From Candidatus Moraniibacteriota bacterium (lineage in GTDB: Bacteria > Patescibacteriota > Minisyncoccia > Moranbacterales > UBA1568): a stretch of DNA of 64,000 nt. Below are positions 10,370 through 26,091 of the stretch, in pieces. Where the stretch lies: contig JAUSGT010000002.1 in NCBI GenBank assembly GCA_030648835.1, forward strand, positions 437,458 through 501,457. The letters run 5' to 3'. The first letter of the stretch is position 1. Each line of letters starts with the position of its first letter. The notes beneath the pieces are model-generated. The model searched no databases. It saw only the letters and a program-made list of their open reading frames with translations, and had not been told where the DNA came from. The translations under genes were made by a program, and so were the position numbers.

Positions 10370-11086
10370 ATGACTGCCATTATGAAAATACGGAAATCGA
10401 AAGAACGCATGCTCATCTCTCTCGGCGGATCGCTCTTGGTCCCTGGGGAAATAGATTGGAAATTCGTGAAGCGGTTCAAGCAGTTCATTATCAAACATAT
10501 CCGCCAGGGGTATTCGTTCATTTTGGTGACCGGCGGTGGCAAGACCGCACGCAAGTATATCGAGGCGGCCAGTCAGGTGTCAAAGATCACCGATGATGAC
10601 AGTGATTGGCTCGGTATTCACGCGACACGTATGAACGCGCATTTCATCCGGACAGTGTTCCGTTCTTACGCTCATCCGCGCATCAATACCAACCCGCACA
10701 ATCTGGAGGATTTTTACGGCGTGAAAGAGCCGATTCTGGTGGCGGCCGGTTGGCGACCGGGATTTTCCACGGACTATGACGCGGTGCTTTTGGGGAAGTA
10801 CCTGGATGTGAAGCGCATCATCAATCTTTCCGATATCGATTATGTCTGCGATAAAGATCCTAAAAAGTACGCGGATGCCAAAAAAATCAAAAACATTTCT
10901 TGGAAAGAATTTCGCAAGATCGTTGGTGATACGTGGCAACCCGGTATGAGTGCCCCTTTTGACCCGGTGGCTTCGAAACTGGCTCAAGCCGAAGGGATGG
11001 AGGTGGCGATTATGAGTGGGCACAATCTGGAAAATATAAAGAACTATATCGCGCATGAAGATTTTATCGGGACAGTGATCAAATAA
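10370..11086 (+). CDS. pyrH: Amino-acid-kinase family protein, archaeal-type UMP kinase-like
   Basis: LISLGGSLL...LVTGGGKTARKYIEAA fits the aspartate/glutamate/uridylate kinase fold. The start may be the internal ATG at 10409. Confidence 0.55.
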   Translation: MTAIMKIRKSKERMLISLGGSLLVPGEIDWKFVKRFKQFIIKHIRQGYSFILVTGGGKTARKYIEAASQVSKITDDDSDWLGIHATRMNAHFIRTVFRSYAHPRINTNPHNLEDFYGVKEPILVAAGWRPGFSTDYDAVLLGKYLDVKRIINLSDIDYVCDKDPKKYADAKKIKNISWKEFRKIVGDTWQPGMSAPFDPVASKLAQAEGMEVAIMSGHNLENIKNYIAHEDFIGTVIK

Positions 11087-11096
11087 TGCGTGTTCT

Positions 11097-12053
11097 ATGG
11101 GAGCAACTTCCGTAAAAAAAGTGCTGTTGGCGGCGCCGCGCGGATTTTGCGCGGGCGTAGGGAGGGCTATCCAAGCGGTAGAGGATACATTGGAAATTTT
11201 CGGCTCGCCTATCTATGTGAAGCATGAAATCGTGCATAACAAGCATGTGGTGGCGGATCTCGCGGCCAAGGGAGTGATTACCATCGAGAACCTCTCGGAG
11301 GCTCCGGACGGGGCTGTCGTAGTGTTTTCGGCTCATGGATCATTGCCGGAACATTATACAGAGGCGAAGCGTCGGCACATGCGGCTGATTGATGCGACGT
11401 GTCCCTTGGTAACCAAGGTACATCTTGAGGTACAGCGCTTCTTGAAAGACGGCTATACGGTGGTCTATATCGGTCATCATGGACATGTCGAAGGGATCGG
11501 TGTCTTGGGTGAGGCGGGGAGTACAGTGATTCCATTGGTAGAGACAGCGGAGGAAGTGGAAAAATTGGAAATCGGCAACCCGGAGAAACTCATTTATCTT
11601 ACTCAGACGACACTCTCGGTCGATGATACGGCAGACGTCATTGCCGCTCTCAAGAAAAAATATCCCCAGATCGTGGCGCCACCACTTTCCGATATCTGTT
11701 TTGCCACGACCAACCGGCAGGAAGCGGTCAAGGCATTGGCCAAACTTTCCGATCTGATTCTGATTTTTGGTTCCAAAAATTCGTCGAATTCCACGCGTCT
11801 CAAAGAAACGGCGCGGGCAGCGGGCGTGCAAGCATATCTCATTGATGATATTTCAGAGCTTGATGAAAATTGGCTCATTGATGTGGAAACGGTTGGTATC
11901 AGCGCCGGGGCGAGCGTTCCGGAAAAATTGGTAGAGGAAGCTGTCGCCTATTTTGCCTCTCTCGGCGTGGTAGCGGAAGACTTCGTCGTCAAGCTGGAAA
12001 CAATGACTTTTTCTGAGCCTTTGGATCTGATGCAGTTGAAGAAAAATCGGTAG
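11097..12053 (+). CDS. ispH: 4-hydroxy-3-methylbut-2-enyl diphosphate reductase (IspH/LytB)
   Basis: LAAPRGFCAGVGRAI, conserved Cys positions and HN/SxN motifs. Confidence 0.85.
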   Translation: MGATSVKKVLLAAPRGFCAGVGRAIQAVEDTLEIFGSPIYVKHEIVHNKHVVADLAAKGVITIENLSEAPDGAVVVFSAHGSLPEHYTEAKRRHMRLIDATCPLVTKVHLEVQRFLKDGYTVVYIGHHGHVEGIGVLGEAGSTVIPLVETAEEVEKLEIGNPEKLIYLTQTTLSVDDTADVIAALKKKYPQIVAPPLSDICFATTNRQEAVKALAKLSDLILIFGSKNSSNSTRLKETARAAGVQAYLIDDISELDENWLIDVETVGISAGASVPEKLVEEAVAYFASLGVVAEDFVVKLETMTFSEPLDLMQLKKNR

Positions 12054-12071
12054 GAGGAGTATACTACGGGC

Positions 12072-14633
12072 ATGATTTTCATCAAAAATTTCAATGAAAT
12101 AGGAAAAGGGGATGCCGCTCTTGCGGGTGGCAAGGGTGCTTCTTTGGGAGAAATGACACAGACCGGTATCCCGGTGCCGCCGGGTTTCGTTGTTTTGGCC
12201 GATGCGTTTGAAAAGTTTCTCGATGAGACAGATCTCAATACTGAGATTGATACTATTCTTCATACAGTCAATACGGACGAGATGCGGAGTGTCGAACACG
12301 CCTCCGAAAGGATCCAGAAATTGATTCTTGAGGCCAAGATGCCGGCAGATATCGGGAAAGAGATACAGAAAAATTTTAAAGTTCTGGATGTACAGTATGT
12401 CGCAGTCCGCTCGAGCGCCACAGCCGAGGATAGCGATTCTGCGGCCTGGGCCGGCCAGCTAGATACCTTTTTGAATACTACAGAGGAAACCTTGCTCGAG
12501 AATGTACAGAAATGCTGGGCTTCCTTGTTCACGTCGCGAGCTGTTTTCTATCGCTTCGAGAAAGAATTGCATCAGCAGAAAATTTCCGTGGCGGTCGTAG
12601 TCCAAAAAATGATCCAGTCGGAAATTTCCGGCATCGCCTTTTCCGTCCATCCGGTGACCGAAGACAGAAACCAGCTCATCATCGAAGCCGGTTGGGGTCT
12701 CGGCGAAGCCATCGTTTCCGGACAAATCACGCCGGATAGCTATGTAGTGGAAAAAGATCCACGGCGGATTATCGATACGAATATTGCTATTCAGGAACGT
12801 GGAATTTACCGTTCTTCTTCTGTCATCCCGGGCTTGACCCGGGATCCAGAAAGTAAGAGTGAGACTTCTGCGAATGAATGGCGGGAAATTCCGGAAAATA
12901 AGAGGGAGAAACAGAAGCTTTCAGAAATGCAGATTCTGGAACTCGCGGAACTGGTGATAAAAATCGAAAAGCACTACGGCTTTCCCTGTGACATCGAATG
13001 GGCTCTTATGAGGGAAAAATTCTACATCACCCAGAGCCGGCCGATCACGACACTTTCTCCACAGTCGCCGGTTTCTGAAGACTCAAAAAAAAAATTAAAA
13101 TTTGAAAAAAATATCACCGATAAATTGGAAAAGAGAATCGCTCACTACTTATCCGAGCCGATGATAAAGATGGGGCAATGGTCACTGATGCCAGTTGATA
13201 TGGAGACATGGTATGTACAGGATGTGTCTAAATACTTTGAAGAATTCTTCGGTTTCCCTAAAGGCCATCCGAATTTTTATATTTCAAAAACAGATGTCAT
13301 ATCAAATTATGCTCCGGAATCATTCTTCCCGAAACTTTTTAGTTATATTCGCAATCTTACAGAACAAGACTTTAAAGGACTAGAAAAAAAGTTGAGTATT
13401 TTTTTAAAAATAAAAAAAGATACCAAAAAAGAACTTTCGTACCTTACTAGTGATAGTTTTCCAAATCTTTCCACTACTGAACTCATTGATCTTTACAAAA
13501 AGAATCGCGATCTTATTCATCGGATAGTGATATTCGATCATTTCGGCATGTATGCTGAGAATTATTGGCCGCCCCTCATGCACGAAATTCTTACCAAGAA
13601 GTTCGGACTTATTCCGGATACGCCAGAATATCACGAAGTTTTATTTACTTTGAGCAAACCAAAGGAAATTTCTATATCGCTAGAAGAGAAACGTGATGTC
13701 CTAGGGGAAGCCCTCCGAGTCAAGACGGGAGAAGAGAGTATGAAAGAAGCTGCAAAAAAGCTCGCCGAGGATTTTGGCTGGCTACCCGTTTTCACCTATG
13801 GTACGCCGTGGGATGAACGTCATTACGAGGTGGAGTTGGAGGAACTTTCCAAGCGGGATGTAGCTTTTTTGAAAGAAGAATATGAAAAACTCAAAAATTA
13901 TTCTGATTTGCGTGATCAAGATATACAAAAGTTAGTAAAAAAACATACTATTTTACCTTTAGATCTCCAAATTTTTGTTGATTTTGGTCTGGCAGTAGAT
14001 GTTCGGAACGAGGCGGAATTCGTCGTTTCTTTGGGCGGATATTATTTATTACCGATGTACAAGGAAATGGCACGGAGATTAAAAACTTCTGAAAAAGGGC
14101 TGCGTCTGCTTTTCGAAGAGGAAATCATTGCTTGTCTCGAGGGTCGAGCTGATTCGCAAGACCTTCTGAAAGGAAAAAAGAATATCGTCGCTTGGGGTTT
14201 CGATGAGAGCATGAGAAAGCGGATAAACTTTACCGAAGAAGAGGCGTGGGCATTGCATCATCATTTTGAAGCGCATGCCAAGATTTCCGGCCAAAGCGAA
14301 TCCGATGTCAAAAAGGGCGTCTGTGCCAGTTCCGGCAAAGCCCGAGGTGTAGCGCGTATTCTCAAAAGTCCGGCAGAAAACGCGTCAGTGAAATCGGGAG
14401 ATATCCTAATCAGCTATGCTACAACTGTCGACTATCTCTCGGCTATGAAGAATGCCGCTGCCATCGTTACCGAAACAGGCGGGTTGACGTGTCACGCAGC
14501 CGTTGTTTCGCGCGAGTTCGGTATCCCGTGTATCGTCGGGCTGAAAAACGCCATGTCCGATTTCCGAGACGGTGATCTCGTCGAGGTAGATGCGGATAAT
14601 GGAGTGGTGAAAATCCTTACTAAGAGAGTGTAG
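12072..14633 (+). CDS. P1: PEP-synthase/rifampin-phosphotransferase-like three-domain protein (N-terminal PPDK_N ATP-grasp, middle domain, C-terminal PEP-utilising phosphohistidine swivel domain)
   Basis: N-terminal GGKGASLGEMTQTGIPVPPGFVV...CDIEWAL (ATP-grasp/PPDK_N). C-terminal GGLTCHAAVVSREFGIPCIVG with the His codon at 14493-14495. At 853 aa it matches the RPH-like architecture. Confidence 0.8.
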   Translation: MIFIKNFNEIGKGDAALAGGKGASLGEMTQTGIPVPPGFVVLADAFEKFLDETDLNTEIDTILHTVNTDEMRSVEHASERIQKLILEAKMPADIGKEIQKNFKVLDVQYVAVRSSATAEDSDSAAWAGQLDTFLNTTEETLLENVQKCWASLFTSRAVFYRFEKELHQQKISVAVVVQKMIQSEISGIAFSVHPVTEDRNQLIIEAGWGLGEAIVSGQITPDSYVVEKDPRRIIDTNIAIQERGIYRSSSVIPGLTRDPESKSETSANEWREIPENKREKQKLSEMQILELAELVIKIEKHYGFPCDIEWALMREKFYITQSRPITTLSPQSPVSEDSKKKLKFEKNITDKLEKRIAHYLSEPMIKMGQWSLMPVDMETWYVQDVSKYFEEFFGFPKGHPNFYISKTDVISNYAPESFFPKLFSYIRNLTEQDFKGLEKKLSIFLKIKKDTKKELSYLTSDSFPNLSTTELIDLYKKNRDLIHRIVIFDHFGMYAENYWPPLMHEILTKKFGLIPDTPEYHEVLFTLSKPKEISISLEEKRDVLGEALRVKTGEESMKEAAKKLAEDFGWLPVFTYGTPWDERHYEVELEELSKRDVAFLKEEYEKLKNYSDLRDQDIQKLVKKHTILPLDLQIFVDFGLAVDVRNEAEFVVSLGGYYLLPMYKEMARRLKTSEKGLRLLFEEEIIACLEGRADSQDLLKGKKNIVAWGFDESMRKRINFTEEEAWALHHHFEAHAKISGQSESDVKKGVCASSGKARGVARILKSPAENASVKSGDILISYATTVDYLSAMKNAAAIVTETGGLTCHAAVVSREFGIPCIVGLKNAMSDFRDGDLVEVDADNGVVKILTKRV

Positions 14634-14637
14634 TTTT

Positions 14638-15675
14638 ATGTCCAAGTTAGAATGGAGAAAAAATTGGTCTGGGAGTTGGTCATTTCTTGAGTGTTTTTAT
14701 TACGGTAAGATTTACACTATCTTACTTGAAAAGACTCACGGTATTGGAATTTCAACTGCGGCATTTATATCAAAGCAAGGCAGAAGCGACTCGTATCTCA
14801 TTGAGGATGAAGTTGCACAGTTTGGGGAGGCTCTCGCAAAAAAACTTGAAGGAGATATAAATTTAGCGGAGCAATGGGGTCAATCTGCGAAAGAAATCGG
14901 AGATAGGATTTTGCAATTTATTGAATTTCATCAGGAGAAAGAAATAACCCCACAACTCTATAATGATTTATGGGATATTGTTGAGCAGTATGCCGTAGTA
15001 GCTCTTTCTATAAAAGTCGTTGGTGATTATCTGCCAACTCATCTTTCAAAAAAACTGCTCCCTTTATTTTCGGAGATTCGCGAGTACGGAGAACCGGTAT
15101 ATACTCAGTCGGCTCTCTTTATAAAAAAATTTGCCAACCAGGTCTCAGAAATAACTTCGATCCCAGCTCAGTATGTTCTCGCATCAACAGATTCTGAAAT
15201 TAATGAATATTTTGAAACTCAGAAACTTCCTGATGTGAAAGTTCTCGCCGCTCGTTATGAGTGTGCCTTTATTTATGTACAGGAAGGGGAAATCAAAGAA
15301 ATTACAGGAAAAGAAGGCGTGGATGCATTTGAGAAACAACTGAGAGTTGAGAGCGAGTACGTCCAGGGAGCCTGTGCTTTTCCAGGAAAAGTAAAAGGAA
15401 AAGTGAGGATAATTCTTGATCCTTCAGGGGTATCAAGTTTAGAAGCAGGAACGGTACTGGTAACTGGTATGACCAGGCCAGAGTACCTCCATCTTATGAA
15501 ACAAGCTATTGCCGTAGTTACCGATGGCGGTGGTGTTCTCTCACATGCTGCTATTACTGCCCGAGAATTGAAAAAACCTTGCATTATCGGTACCAAAATC
15601 GCCACGCAAGTCTTGAAAGATGGCGATATGGTAGAGGTGGATGCGGAACGGGGGATTATTACTATTATCAAATGA
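14638..15675 (+). CDS. P2: paralog with a divergent N-terminal domain and the C-terminal phosphohistidine swivel domain; no ATP-grasp domain
   Basis: C-terminal GGGVLSHAAITARELKKPCIIGTKIATQVLKDGDMVEVDAERG with the His codon at 15544-15546. Starts 5 nt after the P1 stop. Confidence 0.7.
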   Translation: MSKLEWRKNWSGSWSFLECFYYGKIYTILLEKTHGIGISTAAFISKQGRSDSYLIEDEVAQFGEALAKKLEGDINLAEQWGQSAKEIGDRILQFIEFHQEKEITPQLYNDLWDIVEQYAVVALSIKVVGDYLPTHLSKKLLPLFSEIREYGEPVYTQSALFIKKFANQVSEITSIPAQYVLASTDSEINEYFETQKLPDVKVLAARYECAFIYVQEGEIKEITGKEGVDAFEKQLRVESEYVQGACAFPGKVKGKVRIILDPSGVSSLEAGTVLVTGMTRPEYLHLMKQAIAVVTDGGGVLSHAAITARELKKPCIIGTKIATQVLKDGDMVEVDAERGIITIIK

Positions 15676-15728
15676 ACATTCTGATATTCTGCAGAATGTC
15701 AGAATGTTTGGTAAGTGCGTGAGACAAA

Positions 15729-17111
15729 GTGAAACATATGGTTGAGAAAAAATTCGAATTTATCGCAGACAGGAATTCCGGTATCGAGGGCAGCATATAT
15801 GGTCTTTCGATGTGTTTGGAGGTTATCTGGCAGAGTAATTTGCGTAACAGCGTGAAGTTTCCGTTTTATGCTCAGATAATCGATGATAAGAAACAGCAGT
15901 GTACGGAGTGGATTGATGCGGAAGCGTATAGGGTCAATGCTTTCAACTTTCTTCGCTATTCTGAGAAGAACGGGACAGACTATCTGAAAAGCGTCAGTAA
16001 GCAAGTAACCGAAGAAACTGCTGATTTTTTTACTTTATCGGCCACACTCCTGCCAACGCTCAGGAAACTTTCTGATTTCGATCTGGCCGAAGCCTACGGC
16101 ATATTTATGAACCGTTACAATGAGATATACGGATTGGGTGCTCTGACGTACGTTTACGAGCATGATCTGTCGGAACACTTATCCCAATCTTTTGGTAAGC
16201 GCGGTAAAAACGCCACAGCCTTTTTGAGTCAGATATTGAAAACGGATTACAAGAGCTTCGTCTTTGAGAGTGATGAGCTTTTACTTGCTATAAAGAGTGA
16301 AAAAAAGGCTATAGTAAAGCAAAAATTGATTAATAGCTATTTGAAGAGTTTTTATTTTATGAGAGCGACGTATTCCTCTGCTCCCATACTTGACTCCGAA
16401 GGAGTGTTACGAATGGCTGCCGAGAGAGAGGTGCAGGAAAAATTTGAAAAAGAGAAGAACCAAAAGCCGATCGAGCTTACAGTAGAAGAAAAAGTACTTG
16501 TCTCGATACTTCAGGAAACGGAAATAATCCGCGATCAGAGAAAAAAAGCCAATCTCATCGGAATGTATATGATGTTTCGCTTTCTCGACGAGCTGTGCAA
16601 GCGGTCAGGTATTTCTTCTGAAATAGCGAGGCGGATGTTTTGGTACGAATTCATAGATGGACTGTTTGATACAGAGCGACTGCTTGCTATTCTGAAAAAG
16701 CGTACGCAAGTCAGTATCGTTTTCGATGGATCAAATACGTATTATTTAGAATATGCCGCGATACGACCCCGTCAAATCAGGAAAAATGTCACGCAATTCA
16801 AAGGAACGCCGGCTTCCTCGGGAAAAGTATCGGCCAAAGTGCGAATTGTTCTTGGTTCGAATGATTTCGAGAAATTCAAGAGGGGCGAAGTCCTCGTGAC
16901 TCAGATGACTCGGCCGGCATTTTTGCCGCTTATGAAAATAGCTGCAGCTATCGTGACGGATGAAGGCGGGCTGACATGCCACGCAGCGATTATCGCGCGG
17001 GAGTTGCATATCCCGTGTATCGTCGGTACCAAAATCGCTACGCAAGTATTGAAAGATGGTGATCTCGTTGAAGTGGACGCGGAAAAGGGATTTGTGAGGA
17101 TTCTGCAGTAA
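15729..17111 (+). CDS. P3: paralog with a divergent N-terminal domain and the C-terminal phosphohistidine swivel domain
   Basis: C-terminal GGLTCHAAIIARELHIPCIVGTKIATQVLKDGDLVEVDAEKG. The track start at 15729 is GTG; the ATG at 15738 is more likely. Confidence 0.7.
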   Translation: MKHMVEKKFEFIADRNSGIEGSIYGLSMCLEVIWQSNLRNSVKFPFYAQIIDDKKQQCTEWIDAEAYRVNAFNFLRYSEKNGTDYLKSVSKQVTEETADFFTLSATLLPTLRKLSDFDLAEAYGIFMNRYNEIYGLGALTYVYEHDLSEHLSQSFGKRGKNATAFLSQILKTDYKSFVFESDELLLAIKSEKKAIVKQKLINSYLKSFYFMRATYSSAPILDSEGVLRMAAEREVQEKFEKEKNQKPIELTVEEKVLVSILQETEIIRDQRKKANLIGMYMMFRFLDELCKRSGISSEIARRMFWYEFIDGLFDTERLLAILKKRTQVSIVFDGSNTYYLEYAAIRPRQIRKNVTQFKGTPASSGKVSAKVRIVLGSNDFEKFKRGEVLVTQMTRPAFLPLMKIAAAIVTDEGGLTCHAAIIARELHIPCIVGTKIATQVLKDGDLVEVDAEKGFVRILQ

Positions 17112-17145
17112 TTTTGGTGTTTGAGGTAGGACTAAAAAAGATAAA

Positions 17146-17173
17146 GGGGGCATCGCGCGAATGCCTCCTTTTT
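17146..17173. terminator. Bidirectional hairpin terminator between convergent P3 and the LMW-PTP gene
   Basis: GGGGGCAT-CGCGCGA-ATGCCTCC hairpin flanked by an A-run and a T-run. Confidence 0.55.
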
Positions 17174-17197
17174 ATTTACCGATTGTGGTTGTTTTTC

Positions 17198-17662
17198 TCA
17201 GAGCCCCTCGAGCGCTTTGGGTAGAGCCTGTTTGATTATTGAGGCACACGCGCCGTAGGCTTCGTGTCCTCCTCCAATCGGGTCCGGTATCCCGTCGTTT
17301 TCACCATTCAGGATTACGATGCGGTTGATCGGCGCTCCTTCATTGATCAGAGCTCGCCTGACATGATGATCCACGACGATGATTCGATCGTAGCTTGAGA
17401 GATCAAATTTTGATACATGTCGCGGAGTGTGGCTGTCGAGGTCGAGGCCTGATTCTCTCGCTATCGCAATGCTGTGTCTGTTCGCGTTGGTGAATAGATT
17501 TACCCCAGGGAACAAACCGTGTCCGGGCAAAAGCTCGTCAAGTATGCCGCAACTTTCGACGATGGCATCAATACCGCGCTCGGCAAGCGCCTGTTGTGTG
17601 AAAACCATCATAAGCGGACTGCGGGCCATATTGCCCATGCATACGCACAAGACTCTCTTCAT
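17198..17662 (-). CDS. Low-molecular-weight protein tyrosine phosphatase / arsenate-reductase fold (LMW-PTP)
   Basis: P-loop CVCMGNMARSP (CX5R) at the N-terminus and a downstream DP motif (IPDPIGG). Confidence 0.8.
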   Translation of the reverse strand: MKRVLCVCMGNMARSPLMMVFTQQALAERGIDAIVESCGILDELLPGHGLFPGVNLFTNANRHSIAIARESGLDLDSHTPRHVSKFDLSSYDRIIVVDHHVRRALINEGAPINRIVILNGENDGIPDPIGGGHEAYGACASIIKQALPKALEGL

Positions 17663-17820
17663 TGGAGACCTCTTTGGGGAAAGAACGAAAAAATAGTATA
17701 GCCTGATATGATGATTTTGTCTAGTCCAATAGATGAGTGTACAATGAAAGAAATTGTGGTATTCGTATAAGTAAGAACCTCACATAGCAGGTAAAAGAAC
17801 AATTAACATACTCGAAGGAT

Positions 17821-18441
17821 ATGGACGAAAAAATTCTTAAGTCAATGAATCATATGAAAGTAGATACTGAACTTTTTGATAAAATTTTCATGAAGGTGAA
17901 ACCCCTGCTTCGTTCCGGGAGACCGGGAGATTATGCACATATCAAGAGCGTGTATCGGACGCTCGTTCGTCTCTGCGAAAAAGAAGACTATCCAATAAAT
18001 CCGCGCATCCTCGTTCCTGCCGGAATCCTGCATGACTGTGGTTTCGGTTTTCTCAAGAAGGAACATATGTATTATTTTACCGGGCAGAAAAAAGTGACTG
18101 CGATGAAAGAAGTGATCGGCGGCCTGACACTTGCCTATATTCCGGTGTGCCTTCAAGAATTCCAATTCTCCGATCAAGAAATAGAAGGCATAAAATATAT
18201 CGTGACATATTCCGATGAAAGCGTGCTTCCTATGGAAAATCCATCGCTTGAACTTCAGATTCTCCATGATCTCAATCTGTATGACCGTTTTCTGCCACAT
18301 CGGCTGAAGACCCTGAATACTCTTTATTCCGATCCCGTGAAAAGAAAGGCAGTTCTCGAAGATTCTTTGAGGTACATTATCTTGTCCACTTTCAAGAAAA
18401 AAGCGGAAAAACTGATGAAGAAGATAACGGAAAAATTTTGA
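17821..18441 (+). CDS. HD-domain metal-dependent phosphohydrolase
   Basis: H...HD...D pattern: AHIKSV, GILHDCG and LHDLNLYD. Confidence 0.55.
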   Translation: MDEKILKSMNHMKVDTELFDKIFMKVKPLLRSGRPGDYAHIKSVYRTLVRLCEKEDYPINPRILVPAGILHDCGFGFLKKEHMYYFTGQKKVTAMKEVIGGLTLAYIPVCLQEFQFSDQEIEGIKYIVTYSDESVLPMENPSLELQILHDLNLYDRFLPHRLKTLNTLYSDPVKRKAVLEDSLRYIILSTFKKKAEKLMKKITEKF

Positions 18442-18455
18442 CTTTTTGAAGTAAT

Positions 18456-20012
18456 ATGAATCTGAGACAAGTTTTGGACAGAAAGGGGATGTACATATAT
18501 CCCTGGTACATATCGGATATTGCGGTTACCAAAGATATCGCTTCCATCGCCCCGACCAATGTAAAGAAGGTTTTTGTCAGTATCAAAGACAACCTTTTGA
18601 CCATGTATTATGATACTGATGCTGTCGACAAGATTGCCATATACTTTTTGGATAAAATTCTTGTAAACGATATATTTTTTGATGAGGTTATCAAAAATAT
18701 TTATCACTGTGCCGATGATTTGCTTTCTTTTTGCAGAGAAAGCGCGGAGAAAAAAGTTGAAAAAATGTCAGATGAGGAGTTGCTGAGTATTTACCGGACG
18801 TATACGGAAAAATTACGCACTCTAAGGATATGGGGCTGGGTGCCTCCGATTCTGGACGGTATGACCGACCCGTTCTTGAGCCAGCATCTGCTTACGCGAT
18901 TCGGTGAATTTATGGTGACAAAAGGACTCTCTGATAAGGTGAGCGAGTATTATTCGACACTCAGTTCCAGCGAGAGAGAAAGCGAGGTACAAGGAGAAGA
19001 GATAGCTCGTTTGACACTGGCACAAAGTATTGTGGATAGCAGCCAGAGCGAAGAAATCATCCAGTGTATCAAGAATACCGATGAGGGTGCTTTACAGGAG
19101 AAATTTACATCGTTCTATGCACTTCTGGAAAAGCATACGCAAGCATTCGGCGCTCTCACCTATTCTTATAGTGGACCGGCGATGACCATCGCGTATCTGC
19201 TCAAGGCATTGGCCGATGATTTCGAACGAGGAGATATAAGGGGACAGAGAAAGAAAATTCAAGATCACTTCCGGAATATCAAAGAGGAAAAGAGAAAGAT
19301 TATCGAGGCGGTCGATTTGTCGGCAGATTTACAAAGGGAATTCCGAGTGTCGGCAGAACTGATGTATATCAAGGATTGGCGCAAGGGAGCCTATCAGAAA
19401 TCGTATCTCCTGATGGATGTTATTTTGCAAGAGTTAGCCAAGCGTTTGGATATATCTCTGAAAGAGATCAAGTTTCTTGTGTTTGACGAAGTGCGGGAAG
19501 CACTGACCGGAGGAAAGGGAACATACTATAAGGCTCTGCTTGAAGAGCGTCTGAAACACTGCTGCTATAGCGTGGAAAATGGTATTATTGTTGTTTCACA
19601 GGGTAAAGCTTGTGAAGTGTTGGAGGAAAAAATAAAGAAAGAAAGTGTGAGTATGGAACCGACGAAGATGCCAATAGGGGATATCCGCGAGATAAAAGGA
19701 TCTGTCGCGTACAGCGGGTATGCCAAGGGTATTGTGAAGATTGTGCTGACCGTAGAGGATACTGACAAGGTCAATGAAGGTGATATTCTCGTTTCTTCGG
19801 CGACCAATCCCGATCTGATGCTGGCGATGAGGAAGGCCGCCGCCTTCGTGACCGATACGGGAGGCATTATGTCGCATGCTTCTATCGTCTCGCGAGAAAT
19901 GAAAAAACCCTGCGTCGTTGGGACGAAAATAGCCACACATATATTCAAGGATGGTGATCTTGTGGAGGTAGATGCCAAGAACGGTGTAGTAAGGATTCTC
20001 AAAAAGAAATGA
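18456..20012 (+). CDS. P4: paralog with a divergent N-terminal domain and the C-terminal phosphohistidine swivel domain
   Basis: C-terminal GGIMSHASIVSREMKKPCVVGTKIATHIFKDGDLVEVDAKNG. Confidence 0.7.
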   Translation: MNLRQVLDRKGMYIYPWYISDIAVTKDIASIAPTNVKKVFVSIKDNLLTMYYDTDAVDKIAIYFLDKILVNDIFFDEVIKNIYHCADDLLSFCRESAEKKVEKMSDEELLSIYRTYTEKLRTLRIWGWVPPILDGMTDPFLSQHLLTRFGEFMVTKGLSDKVSEYYSTLSSSERESEVQGEEIARLTLAQSIVDSSQSEEIIQCIKNTDEGALQEKFTSFYALLEKHTQAFGALTYSYSGPAMTIAYLLKALADDFERGDIRGQRKKIQDHFRNIKEEKRKIIEAVDLSADLQREFRVSAELMYIKDWRKGAYQKSYLLMDVILQELAKRLDISLKEIKFLVFDEVREALTGGKGTYYKALLEERLKHCCYSVENGIIVVSQGKACEVLEEKIKKESVSMEPTKMPIGDIREIKGSVAYSGYAKGIVKIVLTVEDTDKVNEGDILVSSATNPDLMLAMRKAAAFVTDTGGIMSHASIVSREMKKPCVVGTKIATHIFKDGDLVEVDAKNGVVRILKKK

Positions 20013-21367
20013 ATATAAGTGATTTTCAAAATCGTAAATGGGTGGTGCTGGGAGCCAATTGTTACCCGCTGTATGCCGATTCTTTCGCGGAGCCGGTGAG
20101 CCAGGGGTACTACCGGACATATGGGATCCCCAATGAGGTGCTGGGGGTTTTCAACAAGGATTTTTTCGAATGGTTGTATGACAACTCACAACTCGTTGCA
20201 TTGTCAGAGAAATTATTGCCAGGTTTGTTGAGCACACCTTGGAATTACTATGATGAATGGCAAAAGAATGCGAAATCCTTTTCTGTTTTTCATGAATCAG
20301 TTATAGAAAAAGATTTTACAGCATTGTCCCATAAAGAGTTGGGTAAATTGGCAAAAGAATACCATCGTATTTTTTGGCTTCAGTTTGCTCCCAGTAATAT
20401 TATTGAGCCGCTTAGCTATTATTTTCAAAGCCGTTTCAAAAAAATGCTTACCCTCAAAGGTACGAAGGAAAATGAAATAGATCAGCTAATGGATTACTAT
20501 GGCCGATCCAAGTATCCAAACTATATTAAAGAATGTCTGGCTGAATACCGTTTGGCAAAAAATGAAGACGTCATACAAGCAGTTTTGAAGAAATATGCAT
20601 ACCTGGCGAACGATTACTTGGGGCCAAAAGTATTAACCAAAGCGTACCTGGATGAACTGTTAAAACAAGAAACGCATGAGCCGCATGTTGGCGCAGTCCC
20701 TGCTGTTTCTCCCGAAACGCAGTTGTTGCTAGAAGTTTTTCAGATGGTGGCTACTATCCAGGATGTCAGGAAAGCTTATAGCTTGATGATGATAGCTGGC
20801 GTACACAATTTTGCGATCGAATACGCCAAGCGGCTTAAACTGCCGGATACTCTTATATGGTATGCTCTCTGGAAAGAAATATATGCAGGCGATGTCAATG
20901 AAAAAAAGCTGGAAGAGCGTCGCGAACATAGCGTCATACTCTGGGGGAAAAAAGAAACGGTTGCTTGTGAAGGAATAGAGGCTGAGAAATTGGCAGCAGA
21001 TATCCATACGTTGGTTTTCGGCAGTACCAAAGATGTGAAAAAAGTGAAAGGCATATGTGCTTCTCCGGGAAAAGTCACGGGGCGAGCCGTCGTTGTGATG
21101 CATCCTGATGAATTCCACAAGGTGAAAAAAGGAGACGTGCTTTTTACTATGATGACGCGCCCGGAATATTTACCGGTTATGCAGCTGGCAGCCGCATTTG
21201 TCACTGATGAGGGAGGCATCACGTCGCACGCGGCGATTGTGGCGAGGGAAATGAAAAAACCATGTATCATAGCTACGAAAATAGGCACGAAAGTCGTGAA
21301 AGACGGTGATCTCGTCGAGGTAGACGCGGATAAGGGGATAGTGAGGATATTAGAAAAAAAGAAATAG
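20009..21367 (+). CDS. P5: paralog with a divergent N-terminal domain and the C-terminal phosphohistidine swivel domain
   Basis: C-terminal GGITSHAAIVAREMKKPCIIATKIGTKVVKDGDLVEVDADKG. Its start overlaps the P4 stop (ATGA). Confidence 0.7.
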   Translation: MNISDFQNRKWVVLGANCYPLYADSFAEPVSQGYYRTYGIPNEVLGVFNKDFFEWLYDNSQLVALSEKLLPGLLSTPWNYYDEWQKNAKSFSVFHESVIEKDFTALSHKELGKLAKEYHRIFWLQFAPSNIIEPLSYYFQSRFKKMLTLKGTKENEIDQLMDYYGRSKYPNYIKECLAEYRLAKNEDVIQAVLKKYAYLANDYLGPKVLTKAYLDELLKQETHEPHVGAVPAVSPETQLLLEVFQMVATIQDVRKAYSLMMIAGVHNFAIEYAKRLKLPDTLIWYALWKEIYAGDVNEKKLEERREHSVILWGKKETVACEGIEAEKLAADIHTLVFGSTKDVKKVKGICASPGKVTGRAVVVMHPDEFHKVKKGDVLFTMMTRPEYLPVMQLAAAFVTDEGGITSHAAIVAREMKKPCIIATKIGTKVVKDGDLVEVDADKGIVRILEKKK

Positions 21368-21432
21368 AAAAACTGCCAAAATTGGCAGTAGATAATAAGC
21401 ACGCTTTGCAATTATACACCTTTTTGGTGGTT

Positions 21433-21461
21433 TTGTCAATGTCAGACTTATCCTGTATTAT
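21433..21461 (+). promoter_or_regulatory. Candidate promoter TTGTCA-17-TATTAT upstream of the riboflavin kinase gene
   Basis: TTGTCA at 21433-21438, a 17-nt spacer and TATTAT at 21456-21461. Confidence 0.35.
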
Positions 21462-21520
21462 TGAAGAATCGGATGTAAGTAATACCGAATGCTTACGTCA
21501 AAAGAATATAGGTTAATCGT

Positions 21521-21895
21521 ATGTCAGGAACAAAACAGGTGCCTCTTTTGGTACAAAAAGGAAAAGTGGAGCGCGGAACGAAAATGGCCCGGAAGGTGGG
21601 ATATCCTACGGTGAATATTCACTATGATGATCCGGAAATTCTTACCGGTACGTATGCCGGGAAAGTAACGGTGGACAATACCGAATACCGTGCCGCGATC
21701 TATGTCAATCAAGAGCGGGAAGTATTGGAGGCGCATCTTTTGGATTTTTCGGGGGATTTGTATGGAAAAGAGATCACCGTTGTATTGCTGGAACGGTTGG
21801 TAGAAGCGAAAGAGTTCCGGGGAAGACTGGACGAACAAAGTTTCATTGATTGGGCAGTAAAAGAGGTACAGAAATACTTCAACATAAATTCCTAA
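21521..21895 (+). CDS. Stand-alone riboflavin kinase (flavokinase) domain
   Basis: ARKVGYPTVNIHY...GTYAGKV...YRAAIYV...EAHLLDF..DLYGKEITV matches the RibF C-terminal flavokinase domain. No adenylyltransferase domain is present. Confidence 0.75.
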   Translation: MSGTKQVPLLVQKGKVERGTKMARKVGYPTVNIHYDDPEILTGTYAGKVTVDNTEYRAAIYVNQEREVLEAHLLDFSGDLYGKEITVVLLERLVEAKEFRGRLDEQSFIDWAVKEVQKYFNINS

Positions 21896-21989
21896 TATCT
21901 AATTTCTAATTCCTAATAAAAAAGTAGAAATTATAAAATTAAAGATTTCATTAGATATTAGATATTGGTAATTAGAAATTTTTAAACGT
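21896..21989. promoter_or_regulatory. AT-rich island with reiterated palindromic motifs (AATATCTAAT/ATTAGATATT, TTCTAATT/AATTAGAA) between the riboflavin kinase gene and ribE
   Basis: Several copies of TAGATATT and AATTAGAA in both orientations within 94 nt. The base composition is far more AT-rich than the flanks. Confidence 0.4.
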
Positions 21990-22580
21990 ATGTTTACCGG
22001 CATTGTTCAAAAAATAGCGCCGCTTCTTTCTGCCACTCCCCAAGGGGAGTGTTTGCGGGTGCGGATCAAAAAGCCTCTTGGCTGGAAATTGACTCCGGGG
22101 CAAAGCGTGGCTGTGGATGGGGTGTGTTCCACGGTAGTTTTATGCAAGTCAGATTTTTTCGAAGTGGAGTATATGCAAGAGACGCTTATCAAAACAACAG
22201 TGAAAACATTTAAAAAAAACCAAGTTGTCAATCTCGAGCGATCTCTGACTCTCAAAGATTTTGTAGACGGAGGTTTGGTCCAGGGGCATGTGGATATGCG
22301 TGGCAAGGTAAAGAAGGTAGAAAAAACAGGGGAAATGGCCCTCCTTGAAATAACTCTTCCGGAAGCATTAAAGAAATATATCGCTCCTATCGGGTCTGTC
22401 ACAGTGAATGGTGTCAGTTTGACAGTGGCTCGGGTAAAGAAGGATACTTTCAGTATGGCACTTATCCCATACACGTTGGAACATACCAATCTCGGGCTTT
22501 TGAAAAAGGGTGACATGGTCAATGTAGAAGTGGATATTCTGGCGCGGTACATCGTCAATGCGCGAATAAAGGAAAGATAA
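21990..22580 (+). CDS. ribE: Riboflavin synthase alpha chain
   Basis: MFTGIVQ N-terminus and two lumazine-binding repeats (VAVDGVCSTV and VTVNGVSLTV). Confidence 0.85.
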   Translation: MFTGIVQKIAPLLSATPQGECLRVRIKKPLGWKLTPGQSVAVDGVCSTVVLCKSDFFEVEYMQETLIKTTVKTFKKNQVVNLERSLTLKDFVDGGLVQGHVDMRGKVKKVEKTGEMALLEITLPEALKKYIAPIGSVTVNGVSLTVARVKKDTFSMALIPYTLEHTNLGLLKKGDMVNVEVDILARYIVNARIKER

Positions 22581-22600
22581 TTCAGGTAACTTAGAGAAAT

Positions 22601-23068
22601 ATGCAAGTAAAAAACGCCGCCAAAAGAATAACAAAAAACGCTTCAGCGCTCCAGATCGGTATCGTGGTATCCAACTATTACGCCGATACGATTACCGGAA
22701 AACTTTTGCTTGGAGCAGAGGCTGTTCTGAAAGAATGGAAAGTGTTGCCAAAAAATATTACCGTGGTGCGTGTTCCGGGGTGTTTCGAAATTCCTTATGG
22801 CTGTATCACACTTCTAAAACAAAAAAAGTACGACGCTCTGATTACTTTGGGCTGCATTGTCAAAGGTGAGACGGAACACGATCGCTATATCGCTTCGGCG
22901 GTTTCGCAGGGCATTATGGATCTGACTTTGGCACACGGGGTGCCGATAGCGTTCGGCGTGCTTACCGTCAACAACTTGGCTCAGGCAAAAGCCCGTTCCA
23001 CGGGAAAAAATAACAAAGGAGTGGAAGCTGCTATCGCCGCGTTAGAGGCAACTTTCTTGAAAAAATGA
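22601..23068 (+). CDS. ribH: 6,7-dimethyl-8-ribityllumazine synthase
   Basis: Typical RibH motifs: IGIVVS..., VPGCFEIP, LGCIVKGETEHDRYI and GVLTV. Confidence 0.85.
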   Translation: MQVKNAAKRITKNASALQIGIVVSNYYADTITGKLLLGAEAVLKEWKVLPKNITVVRVPGCFEIPYGCITLLKQKKYDALITLGCIVKGETEHDRYIASAVSQGIMDLTLAHGVPIAFGVLTVNNLAQAKARSTGKNNKGVEAAIAALEATFLKK

Positions 23069-23997
23069 TAATACTGGGTGACTGTATGTTTGAAGAAATT
23101 CATAATAATGAAGCAAGCGAACAAGAAGAAGTAGTTTTGAAGGTGATTATTCAGAGACATGGGCCTAAACTGAGCGCTTCCGGAGAAAAAAACCAGCTGG
23201 CGACTTATTTTGCGGATTCAGTGAAACAAGGGTTTCAGGTAACCGGGATATCTGAGGGAGAGGGATTAGTTCATGTAAATTCAAGTCCTGTTACGAGGGC
23301 AGCAGACACGGCAAAGATTGATATTGCTGAACTTTCTCATACACAGCATCGTTTTAAAGATATGGTTGTAAAGAAAGAGGCACTTGCTGTTTTGTTTCAA
23401 CCGTTGGCCGATGCAGAAGATCCGCGGTTCGCGCGGGATTTGGAGAGGATAGTAAAAATGCAAAAAAAAATTGAGCCGGAAGTGCGCGAAGAAGTCCTTT
23501 TGGAGGAGTCAAATCTTGTGAGTGAAGAAAAAGAGGCGGAAATACGCAATGTCATCGATATGAGAGTTCTTACGGTATTGTTCAATGATGTGCATACTAA
23601 CAAGAAAACATTTGAAACGTCTTATACAGAACTAGCCGACAAGTTTGCGGAGAGATACAAGGGATTTTTGCAGCATATTGGTATGCTGAAGGAAAGAAAG
23701 CGCGAGGGAGGACGTCAGCCAGTAGACGAACCTTACGTGCAGGTAGATATTACCCATTCATTTCCTGTGATGTGTTTTTTGAAAAAATACCTGGTATTTG
23801 CAGATGGAGTGTCTGCAGAAAGCCTTTCCCCAGAAGATTTTTTTGAAAGAACAGGCGGGATTATCCGTGAGTCCGGTTTTATGGAAATGCTTTATATTTC
23901 CAACAGTAACAAGGATTTGAAAGAGGAAAAGATGGCCATAGCTATCCGCGGGTCTTTTGGTAAAGGGCAAGAATTTTCAGGGGAAGTTTCTTTTTAA
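23065..23997 (+). CDS. Hypothetical protein, possibly a histidine-phosphatase (PGAM/SixA-like) fold
   Basis: VIIQRHGPK near the N-terminus resembles the catalytic RHG motif. A later His lies in ITHSFPV. The assignment is weak. Confidence 0.35.
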   Translation: MIILGDCMFEEIHNNEASEQEEVVLKVIIQRHGPKLSASGEKNQLATYFADSVKQGFQVTGISEGEGLVHVNSSPVTRAADTAKIDIAELSHTQHRFKDMVVKKEALAVLFQPLADAEDPRFARDLERIVKMQKKIEPEVREEVLLEESNLVSEEKEAEIRNVIDMRVLTVLFNDVHTNKKTFETSYTELADKFAERYKGFLQHIGMLKERKREGGRQPVDEPYVQVDITHSFPVMCFLKKYLVFADGVSAESLSPEDFFERTGGIIRESGFMEMLYISNSNKDLKEEKMAIAIRGSFGKGQEFSGEVSF

Positions 23998-24007
23998 ATG
24001 ATTTTTT

Positions 24008-25588
24008 ATGCATGAAAAAATAAATTGGTTTTGGATGCATCGGAGAAATGCCAGTCTGCATCACTTCAGTTTTTTGATGACCGGTATGGCCAAGAGAGGA
24101 TGGTCGCCGGTGGTCGATTTTTGGTTTGATAACCAGGCAGTTGTCGGAGTACCAGGCAAAGGCTGTTATGTTTTTTATGATAAAGACCAGCTGAAAAGCG
24201 GGGTGAAGTATAAGAATATCCAAGACAGTATTGATAGTAATCCTGCCTTTGTAAAGGATTTTCAACGAAGAACGGATGAAATTTTTGGTGCGTTGTTTTT
24301 CAAATGCCTTGATATTGAAACAGACAATCTTTCTCTCCTGAGCGACAAGGAACTCCATAGGCTCTACCTCGGCTTCATAGATGCTATGACTGTTGGTCCG
24401 CTCATAACCGTACAACTTTTCGGTATTGAAGCTTGTTTTGATGAGAATTACCGGATCATACAATTTCTCAGGAAACGTTTGCAGGAGCTTGGCAAAGGAA
24501 AAGAATTTGAAACATATAAAGGTATTCTCTCGGTGAATATCGGAGAGACGGTGGCATTTACGGAAAAGAAAAATTTTTACCAGGTTGCGGCGGAAATGGC
24601 AAAAAATAAAGATATTTACGCGCTTTTTCAGAATGAGTCGTTGCAAGAAATAAGCGAGAAATTGAAAAAGTATCCTCGAGAGAACGCTCTTTTCGAGCGA
24701 CATACCAAGAAGTACGAGTGGGTGAATACCGAATACGTGAGCGGTGGCTGGTCTCGTGAGAAGTGGATTGGTGAATTCAAAACGGCGTTGACAGATGTTC
24801 TATTGCCGGATGAACAATTGAAGATTATTTTGCAGAGTTTTGAAGATCTCAATGCGGAAAGAAAAAAGACCATTGAAGAACTGGCTCCGCCCAAGGATGT
24901 TTTGCATGCTCTCAACTGTCTTTCTGAACTGATAGCGCAAAGAGATTGGACAAAAGGGTATTTTACGAAGGCTCTATTGAGCTACAATGTGCTTCTTGAT
25001 GAGATTGCCAGGAGGATCGGTAAAACACGAGAGGATATTCTGCTCTATTCTTATCATGAAATCGAAGCGTACTTTTTGGACGGAACGATTATTCCACAGG
25101 AAGAAATAGATGATCGGAAGAGCAACGGGTTTGTCATTCTCATCAAGCATGGGAGTTTCGAACTGGTTACCGGAAAAAAGAAAATACAGGAAGTTATTGA
25201 GAGTGAAAAAATTTCAGAACCGTTTGAAAAGGTGGCACATATTACCGAATTTAAGGGGCTGGGAGTTTCGCGGGGATGTATCCGGGGGAAGGTGCGGGTT
25301 TTGGAAGATGCCTCGAAGATTTCAGAGCTTGTAGAAGGAGAGATACTGGTCACCTACATGACGACAATCGAATTCATTCCTGCTTTTCGAAAAGCGGCGG
25401 CGGTAGTAACCGATGAAGGTGGAATGTCGTGTCATGCGGCGATCGTAAGTCGAGAATTCAAATTACCTTGTGTCGTCGGCACAAAAGTAGCGACACGCGT
25501 ATTGGAGACGGGCGATGAAGTCGAGGTAGACGCGGATAATGGAAAAGTAAAAATATTGACTAAACACTCATTTATTCAACAAACTTGA
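24008..25588 (+). CDS. P6: paralog with a divergent N-terminal domain and the C-terminal phosphohistidine swivel domain
   Basis: C-terminal GGMSCHAAIVSREFKLPCVVGTKVATRVLETGDEVEVDADNG. Confidence 0.7.
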   Translation: MHEKINWFWMHRRNASLHHFSFLMTGMAKRGWSPVVDFWFDNQAVVGVPGKGCYVFYDKDQLKSGVKYKNIQDSIDSNPAFVKDFQRRTDEIFGALFFKCLDIETDNLSLLSDKELHRLYLGFIDAMTVGPLITVQLFGIEACFDENYRIIQFLRKRLQELGKGKEFETYKGILSVNIGETVAFTEKKNFYQVAAEMAKNKDIYALFQNESLQEISEKLKKYPRENALFERHTKKYEWVNTEYVSGGWSREKWIGEFKTALTDVLLPDEQLKIILQSFEDLNAERKKTIEELAPPKDVLHALNCLSELIAQRDWTKGYFTKALLSYNVLLDEIARRIGKTREDILLYSYHEIEAYFLDGTIIPQEEIDDRKSNGFVILIKHGSFELVTGKKKIQEVIESEKISEPFEKVAHITEFKGLGVSRGCIRGKVRVLEDASKISELVEGEILVTYMTTIEFIPAFRKAAAVVTDEGGMSCHAAIVSREFKLPCVVGTKVATRVLETGDEVEVDADNGKVKILTKHSFIQQT

Positions 25589-25975
25589 TTTGTGTTTTTC
25601 CGGATGATGCGATCCGAGAAAAACGAAAGGGGTATGGAGTTTGGTGAGCTCTTTCGCTATCGCTTGCTGGTCGTGGCCGAGAAAAACTACGTTGGGAGCA
25701 TATTTTTTCAGGACGGTCCATTTACCCAACACTCTATCTCCTCGGACGACTGTGAGTTTTGGGTTGAAGTTTTGGATGGCGGTGATGCGTTCGTTTTGTC
25801 CGTAGCGGGGCAGGTGTCCTTTGAGCTGAAGGACCGCTTCTCCGGCTGTCACGGCTACGATAAGTTTTTCGCAGCGTTTGGCGGCTTCTGTCAGAAAGTA
25901 TTTGTGGCCTTTGTGCAGCCCATCAAAAACACCAAAAACTACGCCTGTTTTATAAAGAGACTTTTTTTGTAGCAT
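25568..25975 (-). CDS. Cytidylyltransferase-fold protein, probably FMN adenylyltransferase (FAD synthetase N-domain-like)
   Basis: GVVFGVFDGLHKGHKYFL carries the (H/T)xGH nucleotidyltransferase motif, as in the RibF N-terminus. The track ORF extends to 26059; the internal Met at 25975 is the more plausible start. Its 3' end overlaps P6 convergently. Confidence 0.6.
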   Translation of the reverse strand: MLQKKSLYKTGVVFGVFDGLHKGHKYFLTEAAKRCEKLIVAVTAGEAVLQLKGHLPRYGQNERITAIQNFNPKLTVVRGDRVLGKWTVLKKYAPNVVFLGHDQQAIAKELTKLHTPFVFLGSHHPEKHKSSLLNK

Positions 25976-26091
25976 AGAGGTGGATTGGTCTAAGAAGGTA
26001 TACATATATTTTAACACAACAGCGTACAGCTTGTATTCTTGGCGTGGACACCGTACCATAAGAGTGAAGATAAAAGATAAATGACCATAGT

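Follow-up and report, generated by a model that had tools for sequence, protein, structure and literature searches.

A 64,000-nt stretch of contig JAUSGT010000002.1 from Candidatus Moraniibacteriota bacterium (here called the window) contains an array of six genes whose products, P1–P6, all end in a phosphohistidine swivel domain. Only the first of them carries the ATP-grasp domain (here called the grasp) that would be expected to charge such a swivel. In rifampin phosphotransferase (RPH), the grasp passes the beta-phosphate of ATP to the swivel histidine (PMC4844700). We propose that the locus is probably a hub-and-spoke two-component small-molecule dikinase of the RPH/HpeHI type, in which one grasp serves six modules, each consisting of a substrate-binding domain and a swivel. 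Three observations lead to this proposal: the one-to-many pattern of genes in this and related loci, the occurrence of the grasp as a stand-alone protein in a sister genome, and a natural protein in which one grasp and four swivels lie in a single chain.

Pfam searches found a complete C-terminal PF00391 (phosphoenolpyruvate (PEP)-utilizers swivel) domain in all six proteins (E 1e-22 to 2e-26) and a complete PF01326 (PPDK_N) domain only in P1 (E 1e-96; positions 3–322 of the 328 in the profile). PPDK_N in the same chain as the swivel, a feature of the RPH superfamily, is therefore present in P1 and absent from P2–P6, for which it would have to come in trans (Table 1). No PF02896 PEP/pyruvate-binding domain was detected by Pfam among P1–P6, and tblastn found no second copy of the P1 ATP-grasp in the 64-kb window. 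The initial annotation of this DNA had described six plus-strand open reading frames (ORFs) ending in a shared swivel domain, with P1 a three-domain, RPH-like protein and the other five composed of a substrate and a histidine domain; the reading frames exist where it placed them and the domain reading is correct. The catalytic histidine of the GGxxxH loop occurs in all six proteins and is invariant in the alignments A1, A2, and A3. The swivel domains (~105 amino acids (aa)) are 43–58% identical by blastp; over the last ~75 aligned columns the identity is 46–69% with a median of 58%, so that the 55–70% estimated initially was slightly generous. The gaps measure 4 nt between P1 and P2 (rather than the 5 nt reported initially) and 53 nt between P2 and P3, and the 4-nt overlap of P4 and P5 is as described before. 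Within P1, a linker of ~25 aa joins the grasp to its module, S1. The array family takes up ~9 kb, or about 1.4%, of the 635,596-bp contig, and public annotation designates its proteins (MDO8566190-201) only as "PEP-utilizing enzyme".

The N-terminal domains of P1–P6 are mutually undetectable by blastp, save for P4 and P6 at 23% identity. Their relationship is seen clearly at the level of profiles, where hhalign comparisons with the P4 profile gave probabilities of 99.7% for the middle domain of P1 (E 2e-25), 99.7% for P6, 98.2% for P5, 98.0% for P3, and 97.0% for P2. Judged from these profiles all six N-terminal domains are homologous, in agreement with the earlier suggestion that those of the short proteins are related to the middle domain of P1. 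The LS..(E/D)L...Y block cited for that suggestion is present in five of the six and missing from P2, which lacks the region. P2 aligns to the P4 family through its first ~105 residues and to P6 through its last ~80 (hhalign 69%), and because the matches are confined to these two parts, P2 is a natural short form whose helical domain is without its central ~190 residues. Similar short forms (337–375 aa) turn up in many other arrays.

P4 was modelled with AlphaFold2 using 42 orthologues (pLDDT 94.1, pTM 0.91), and the model was compared with solved structures by Foldseek. Listeria RPH was the sole match over both domains (E 3e-13, TMq 0.57–0.62), and structures of PPDK, Enzyme I, and pyruvate kinase matched the model in the swivel domain only. 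The P4-family profile A1 aligns to RPH residues 577–878 (E 7e-23), and in this alignment the family motif K306-D307-W-R309-K310 falls on RPH R666-E667-Y-P-K670. The R666-E667-x-x-K670 block is needed for phosphotransfer and is conserved across the superfamily (Stogios et al. 2016; PMC4844700). KDWRK in P4, RDQRK in P3, and RDWTK in P6 are conservative equivalents of RPH R666/E667/K670. On the strength of the fold match, the profile alignment, and the placement of the motif, P2–P6 are RPH minus the ATP-grasp, that is, a substrate-binding domain followed by a phosphohistidine swivel domain.

The initial annotation stated that only the first protein keeps the ATP-grasp, implying loss from the others, and the comparison with other genomes shows the reverse. 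In a sister genome (L001) with about 80% nucleotide identity to the window, the grasp orthologue is encoded alone, as a 349-aa protein with 79% identity by blastp (87% of aligned codon positions), which stops just past the ...ITQSRPITTL motif and is directly followed by the P3 orthologue. Residues 1–328 of the P1 grasp are 50–69% identical to stand-alone, array-terminal proteins of 312–330 aa in other CPR (Candidate Phyla Radiation) genomes. Altogether the grasp stands alone in 28 loci, with CPR-type copies 44–69% identical and three copies from DPANN archaea about 35% identical; the best sequence matches of the P1 grasp are the PEP synthases 8a8e and 9dae. The C-terminal 500 residues of P1 are in turn 47–51% identical, end to end, to stand-alone CPR proteins of 493–510 aa (L002, L010, L054, L025), whose N-termini map at about P1 residue 355. 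Given the stand-alone grasp of the sister genome, we conclude that the grasp is normally encoded by its own gene and that P1 is a fusion of the grasp to one module.

Two whole blocks of the window are absent from L001, one comprising the P1 module and P2 (13005–15731) and the other a His-phosphatase-like gene and P6 (23072–25903). Modules thus differ between close relatives by the presence or absence of whole cassettes, sometimes along with a phosphatase. The G+C content of the array region (window 12000–26000) is 0.41–0.45 compared with 0.46–0.50 in both flanks; in combination with the presence or absence of modules in L001, this may indicate lateral acquisition, or it may merely reflect a Lys-rich composition.

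A search for relatives in one genome per species yielded at least 596. The best 80 of these, located in 79 loci, come from ~40 Patescibacteria metagenome-assembled genomes (MAGs) and 25 DPANN archaea (Micrarchaeota, Woesearchaeota, Nanoarchaeota, Iainarchaeum, and Pacearchaeota), while the labels of the remaining 14 are different or unspecific, and several of these lie on short MAG contigs. Related loci were picked by similarity to P4, and a limitation of the design to CPR and DPANN is thereby not proven. The design spans both prokaryotic domains, and there may have been exchange between CPR and DPANN. A search with only the N-terminal domain of P4 matched 709 clusters, formed at 50% identity, among 1.84 billion representatives. 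The spread of the array was missed by the initial annotation.

In 83 loci of ~20 kb each, ORFs were called and searched with a swivel hidden Markov model and with the P1 grasp. The arrays hold 2–12 swivel proteins within ~20 kb, the largest being that of Candidatus Nealsonbacteria with 12 swivel genes (L008, 21.5 kb), and 310 of the 311 array genes are co-directional. Exactly one grasp was found in 33 of the 83 loci and two grasps in a single locus, which has two modules. The grasp was always terminal (26 of 26; last in 18, first in 8, internal in none), and it was a stand-alone protein in all but six cases. The number of modules per grasp is six in the window and reaches ten elsewhere (L082, with 10 swivel genes and a grasp; a Woesearchaeota array, L067, has nine and a grasp), with a median of four among grasp-bearing loci.

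The 282 substrate domains in these loci fall into 120 clusters, 86 of which are singletons. The median best identity of a substrate domain is 20% within its array and 33% between genomes; 96% of the 282 domains are nearer to a domain of another genome than to any in their own array, and within-array identity reaches 50% in none of them. Since the closer relatives lie in other genomes and none at 50% or above lies within the array, the arrays are sets of ancient paralogues rather than products of recent tandem duplication.

Several matches of the P4 N-terminal domain are natural fusions that join the same parts in one chain. The 2309-aa protein P0143 contains four swivels and one PPDK_N, P0136 and P0215 contain one grasp and two swivels each, P0144 and P0155 contain three swivels each, and P0167 consists of a module and a HAD phosphatase. 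The idea favoured in the initial annotation, that substrate-specific modules are charged in trans, finds support in both comparative and Rosetta-stone evidence.

The modules are also well conserved individually. P4 has more than 100 full-length orthologues (40–89% identity at ~100% coverage), almost all in Patescibacteria. The whole P3 and P5 proteins are 79% and 86% identical, respectively, to their L001 orthologues, the P6 N-terminal domain is 62% identical to its orthologue in L083, and P2 has orthologues of 351–375 aa in L065, L010, and L016 at 27–29% identity.

The principle of a separate grasp is known from characterized enzymes. HpeHI of Rhodococcus, CreHI of Corynebacterium, and the phenylphosphate synthase PpsAB of Thauera/Aromatoleum are two-component small-molecule dikinases; in HpeHI, the ATP-grasp protein is HpeI, a homologue of the RPH grasp, and HpeH contributes RPH-like substrate and swivel domains (PMC12167813). 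Both components of HpeHI are required, the histidine is essential, no stable complex is formed, and the submicromolar Km was described as "consistent with a scavenging system" (PMC12167813). Its histidine is charged in trans, a precedent for the charging proposed for P2–P6. These systems resemble the arrays in that the grasp subunit (HpeI, CreI, PpsB) is split from the subunit bearing the substrate and C-terminal swivel domains (HpeH, CreH, PpsA), the two being separate and adjacent as in P2–P6, L001, and the 28 loci with a stand-alone grasp. The stand-alone grasp of ~310–350 aa is like that of L001 and most related arrays, and HpeH, CreH, and PpsA, compared here by published description, have the two-domain shape of ~500–600 aa seen in P2–P6. 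The differences are that the grasp of the window is fused to S1, that the known systems are 1:1 pairs in contrast to a ratio of 1:6 here and up to 1:10 elsewhere, and that they act on phenolic substrates in aromatic catabolic operons, HpeH, CreH, and PpsA being ~45% identical among themselves. No carboxylase or aromatic-catabolism genes are found in the 64-kb window. The earlier statement that no characterized system has this organisation must therefore be given up for the two-component principle, and it stands for the one-to-many array.

With the RPH superfamily, the six proteins share the C-terminal swivel with its GGxxxH histidine and a helical domain homologous to the rifampin-binding domain (as indicated by the P4 model, the A1 profile, and the hhalign values of 97–99.7%); they differ from RPH itself (PDB 5FBS/5FBT/5FBU/5HV1; PMC4844700) in an identity of only about 15–19% and in the absence of the grasp from five of six. 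None of them qualifies as a true RPH, as P1 stays far below the cut-offs of NF041857 (353 bits; cut-off 999) and NF000283 (239 bits; cut-off 1700), and P2–P6 match these models via the swivel only. The same is true of NCBIfam models of the PRK08296 type, which match P2–P6 in the swivel part only. PEP synthase and PPDK have homologous grasp and swivel domains and the same beta-phosphate/phospho-His chemistry, but the TIM-barrel PF02896 is missing here and the swivel is C-terminal, not central. An assignment to these enzymes was rejected on the same absence of PF02896 and on scores of 447 bits against a cut-off of 598 (NF005057) and 426 against 740 (TIGR01418). One further parallel involves Cj1418, which we take to be a grasp-plus-swivel dikinase of the PEP-synthase/RPH type. 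In the O-methyl phosphoramidate (MeOPN) pathway of Campylobacter, Cj1418 is an L-glutamine kinase that acts together with the CTP:phosphoglutamine cytidylyltransferase Cj1416 (Taylor et al. 2017, as cited in bioRxiv 10.1101/2024.11.05.622173). Cj1418 differs in being one fused chain that acts on one substrate, and the likeness is one of description; it is of interest as a lead, in that a dikinase product is converted to a nucleoside diphosphate derivative by a neighbouring nucleotidyltransferase, a possible model for the nucleotidyltransferase of the array.

Several genes that accompany the modules, among them phosphatase genes and the nucleotidyltransferase gene, belong to the array as well (Table 1), a point that the initial annotation did not recognize. 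The HD-domain gene lies 3–15 nt from every close P4 orthologue (in the window, L001, L002, L004, L006, L007, and L008), in the order HD–P4 in the lineage of the window and P4–HD in the others, and the two form a conserved functional pair. Its residues H40, H71-D72, H82, D132, H149-D150, and D155-R156 are invariant in eight orthologues and its dN/dS with respect to L001 is 0.071; a profile search against the PDB gave no significant match for the protein (best E 0.22). L001 and L085 have the LMW-PTP-type gene in the same position. In the histidine-phosphatase-superfamily (RHG) protein, R31-H32, R78, and H231 are invariant with four orthologues located in other arrays, and profile searches match it weakly to PGM/PhoE-type phosphatases (E 4e-5 to 2e-3). 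SixA, a phospho-His phosphatase, was matched without significance (E 0.044), and this function is not claimed. The nucleotidyltransferase gene is convergent with P6, with a 21-nt overlap between its 3' end and the P6 stop; a plus-strand ORF at 25592–25972 has no family match and is probably spurious, the true gene being the minus-strand nucleotidyltransferase. Its orthologues lie directly upstream of arrays in L002, L004, L018, and L053, just downstream of the lone module of L020, and close by in L001, and it has weak, sub-threshold matches to RfaE domain II, PPAT, TagD, FAD synthetase, and NMNAT. HAD phosphatases (10 loci), His_Phos_1, PfkB nucleoside-kinase-like proteins, S-adenosylhomocysteine (AdoHcy) hydrolase, and S-adenosylmethionine (SAM) synthetase recur in other arrays. 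PADLOC found no match to a known anti-phage defence system for P1–P6, the HD protein, or the His-phosphatase protein.

Table 1. Coordinates of the array proteins, accompanying genes, and a transcription signal in the window.
Feature	Position	Strand	Description and evidence
P1	12072-14633	+	853 aa; PF01326 + PF00391
P1 grasp	12072..13106	+	PPDK_N ATP-grasp, presumed shared ATP-loading module; PF01326 E 1e-96
P1 module S1	13134..14633	+	Substrate-binding + swivel-His; PF00391 E 2e-24
P2	14638-15675	+	Short substrate/swivel module, 345 aa; PF00391 E 1e-22
P3	15729-17111	+	Substrate/swivel module, 460 aa, GTG start; PF00391 E 2e-26
Terminator-like hairpin with T-run after P3	17143..17171	+	11-bp stem, 5 GC pairs, then TTATTT; consensus match only
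LMW-PTP/ArsC-type phosphatase	17198..17662	-	PF01451 E 2e-15; convergent with P3
HD-domain phosphohydrolase, conserved P4 partner	17821..18441	+	H...HD...H...D...HD...DR signature
P4	18456-20012	+	Substrate/swivel module, 518 aa, most widely conserved orthogroup
P5	20009-21367	+	Substrate/swivel module, 452 aa; PF00391 E 7e-23
Riboflavin kinase	21521..21895	+	Stand-alone, 124 aa; PF01687 E 9e-19
Riboflavin synthase	21990..22580	+	PF00677 E 3e-46, two repeats
Lumazine synthase	22601..23068	+	PF00885 E 9e-45
Histidine-phosphatase-superfamily (RHG) protein	23065..23997	+	310 aa, upstream of P6
P6	24008-25588	+	Substrate/swivel module, 526 aa; PF00391 E 9e-24
Small (H/T)xGH nucleotidyltransferase	25568..26059	-	CTP_transf_like/FAD_syn-like; PF01467 E 3e-9, TIGR00125

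The hairpin after P3 and promoter-like sites before the HD and riboflavin-kinase genes, all of them consensus matches only, suggest that the array is read as three co-directional transcription units. The genes for riboflavin synthase and lumazine synthase sit between dikinase modules, and the riboflavin kinase is encoded apart from a putative flavin mononucleotide (FMN) adenylyltransferase-like gene on the other strand. Elsewhere in the window, a UMP kinase (10370–11086) scores 185.6 bits with the archaeal-type model TIGR02076 (cut-off 158) compared with 49 for the bacterial model. Upstream of the housekeeping block lie a protein with sigma-70 region-4 and HARE-HTH domains (730–1803) and a TrwB/TraG-like coupling ATPase that has a treble-clef zinc finger (3194–5203); the two may be what is left of a mobile or DNA-uptake system.

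The mechanism that we envisage starts with the grasp (P1 residues 1–345), which would bind ATP and load its beta-phosphate, via a pyrophospho-His, onto the swivel histidine of its own fused module in cis and of P2–P6 in trans. Each charged swivel would then return to the helical, RPH-like substrate-binding domain of the same protein and hand the phosphate to a bound small molecule, with the net reaction ATP + X + H2O -> AMP + X-P + Pi. As the substrate domains are ancient and strongly diverged paralogues, the small molecule is expected to be a different one for each of the six modules. The phosphatases of four superfamilies, the nucleotidyltransferase, and the flavin, nucleoside, and SAM-cycle genes in the arrays suggest that the substrates are cytosolic nucleoside-, cofactor-, or sugar-like metabolites, and the accompanying enzymes might subsequently adenylylate, cytidylylate, or dephosphorylate the products. 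A plausible role would be the high-affinity, irreversible trapping of host-derived metabolites, which would fit the high energetic drive of a dikinase.

Some observations weigh against this interpretation. No grasp lies inside the ~20 kb stretch of 49 of the 83 loci. Swivel identity is 55% within arrays compared with 53% between them, with no clear genome-specific co-adaptation; the swivels instead track the orthology of their N-terminal domains (71%), so that the co-adaptation test is neutral and the sharing of one grasp is not independently confirmed by it. Being joined to one module, the P1 grasp might work chiefly in cis. The search for further grasp genes covered 64 kb of the 635-kb contig, and more may exist elsewhere in the genome. 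The catalytic block is partial in P5 (QDVRK), P1 (VDVRN), and P2 (REYGE). Gene neighbours differ between lineages, which makes the substrate assignment weak, and phosphotransfer by this family is predicted from the comparison of sequences and structures.

Among other explanations, the suggestion of the initial annotation that the short ORFs are decaying duplicates, and the related possibility of an assembly artefact, draw on little more than a superficial look of truncated P1 copies, and we regard them as barely credible. The dN/dS values with respect to L001 are 0.094 for P3, 0.146 for P4, and 0.132 for P5 (the range being 0.09–0.15), equal to those of housekeeping genes (0.078 for IspH and 0.104 for the lumazine synthase RibH) with 0.095 for the grasp; the motifs, including the catalytic histidine in all six, are intact, full-length orthologues of the P1 middle domain, P2, P4, and P6 exist in other genomes, and the same design recurs at 80+ loci. 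Decay was rejected on these grounds. An artefact was rejected because the sequence and gene order are the same in an independent Logan assembly (L085), where a P1 call of 603 residues crosses the junction between grasp and module, and because synteny is kept in L001. It is also quite improbable that the modules belong to conventional 1:1 dikinases, with the grasp of each encoded elsewhere and the clustering of modules incidental. Every characterized system is indeed a 1:1 pair, and our inspection covered a tenth of the contig. However, no locus with many modules has more than one grasp in ~20 kb, the sole two-grasp locus having just two modules; the genomes are tiny (the contig is 635 kb long); and P0143, with four swivels and one grasp, shows that one grasp is able to serve several modules.

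Slightly more room remains for the idea that the grasp-less proteins never use an ATP-grasp and act in transphosphorylation between small molecules or as ligand-sensing phospho-His regulators, although we consider it improbable. HpeH alone moves phosphate from 4-phosphoacetophenone to acetovanillone (PMC12167813), and the many loci without a nearby grasp, as well as the several phosphatases inside arrays, would be in keeping with this idea. It is at odds with the co-directional and array-terminal location of the grasp wherever it was seen (26 of 26), the fusions that tie one grasp to 2–4 modules, the absence of output or DNA-binding domains attached to the modules, and the conservation of the swivel His loop as in ATP-charged enzymes. 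The principal alternative to a role in metabolite trapping is RPH-like detoxification, in which the same machinery would be a battery of kinases inactivating xenobiotics or antibiotics, one compound per module. In its favour, the one relative with a solved structure is an antibiotic kinase, diversity among the substrate domains is extreme (282 domains in 120 clusters with 86 singletons), whole modules are present or absent between sister genomes that are ~80% identical, as is typical of accessory or arms-race genes, and a published scoring of CPR genomes finds them rich in resistance-like genes, rph hits among them (PMC8651080). On the other hand, P1 falls far short of the RPH equivalog model (353 bits, with a cut-off of 999), the P4 orthogroup keeps 40–54% identity from end to end in many CPR lineages and is always accompanied by HD, a pattern more like housekeeping, the neighbouring genes serve cofactor, nucleoside, and SAM-cycle metabolism or encode phosphatases and are not efflux or resistance genes, and the same arrays are present in DPANN archaea. 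A defensive role thus appears unlikely, if less so than the other alternatives, and we favour the hub-and-spoke dikinase for metabolites.

While the enzymology is known, the one-to-many organisation with multiple adaptors and its striking expansion in ultra-small symbionts of both domains are new. In the literature searched, we found nothing linking swivel, PEP-utilizing, or RPH-type dikinases to Patescibacteria, CPR, DPANN, or Saccharibacteria beyond similarity-based "rph" counts. One practical consequence is that such genes can be miscounted as "rifampin resistance" or "PEP synthase" in surveys of CPR resistomes and metabolism. The arrays also provide biochemists with a ready set of natural specificity domains that have diverged widely on one RPH scaffold.

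A large part of microbial diversity belongs to CPR bacteria and DPANN archaea, whose genomes measure about 0.6–1 Mb and whose metabolism is poorly understood. If one grasp does serve many modules, the arrays would represent a new organisational principle for small-molecule kinases, similar to E1/E2-like or phosphotransferase system (PTS)-like hub-and-spoke arrangements, and would point to a set of metabolites that the symbionts must phosphorylate, possibly taken from their hosts. These considerations lead us to speculate, with considerably less confidence than for the locus itself, that CPR and DPANN share a "one charger, many adaptors" system that replaces many conventional kinases and whose adaptors are gained, lost, fused, and possibly exchanged across domains. 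A single grasp would then load up to a dozen interchangeable substrate adaptors for the irreversible trapping or activation of host-derived nucleosides, vitamins, or sugars. If this speculation is correct, the arrays would constitute a major, so far unrecognized part of the metabolism of ultra-small symbionts.

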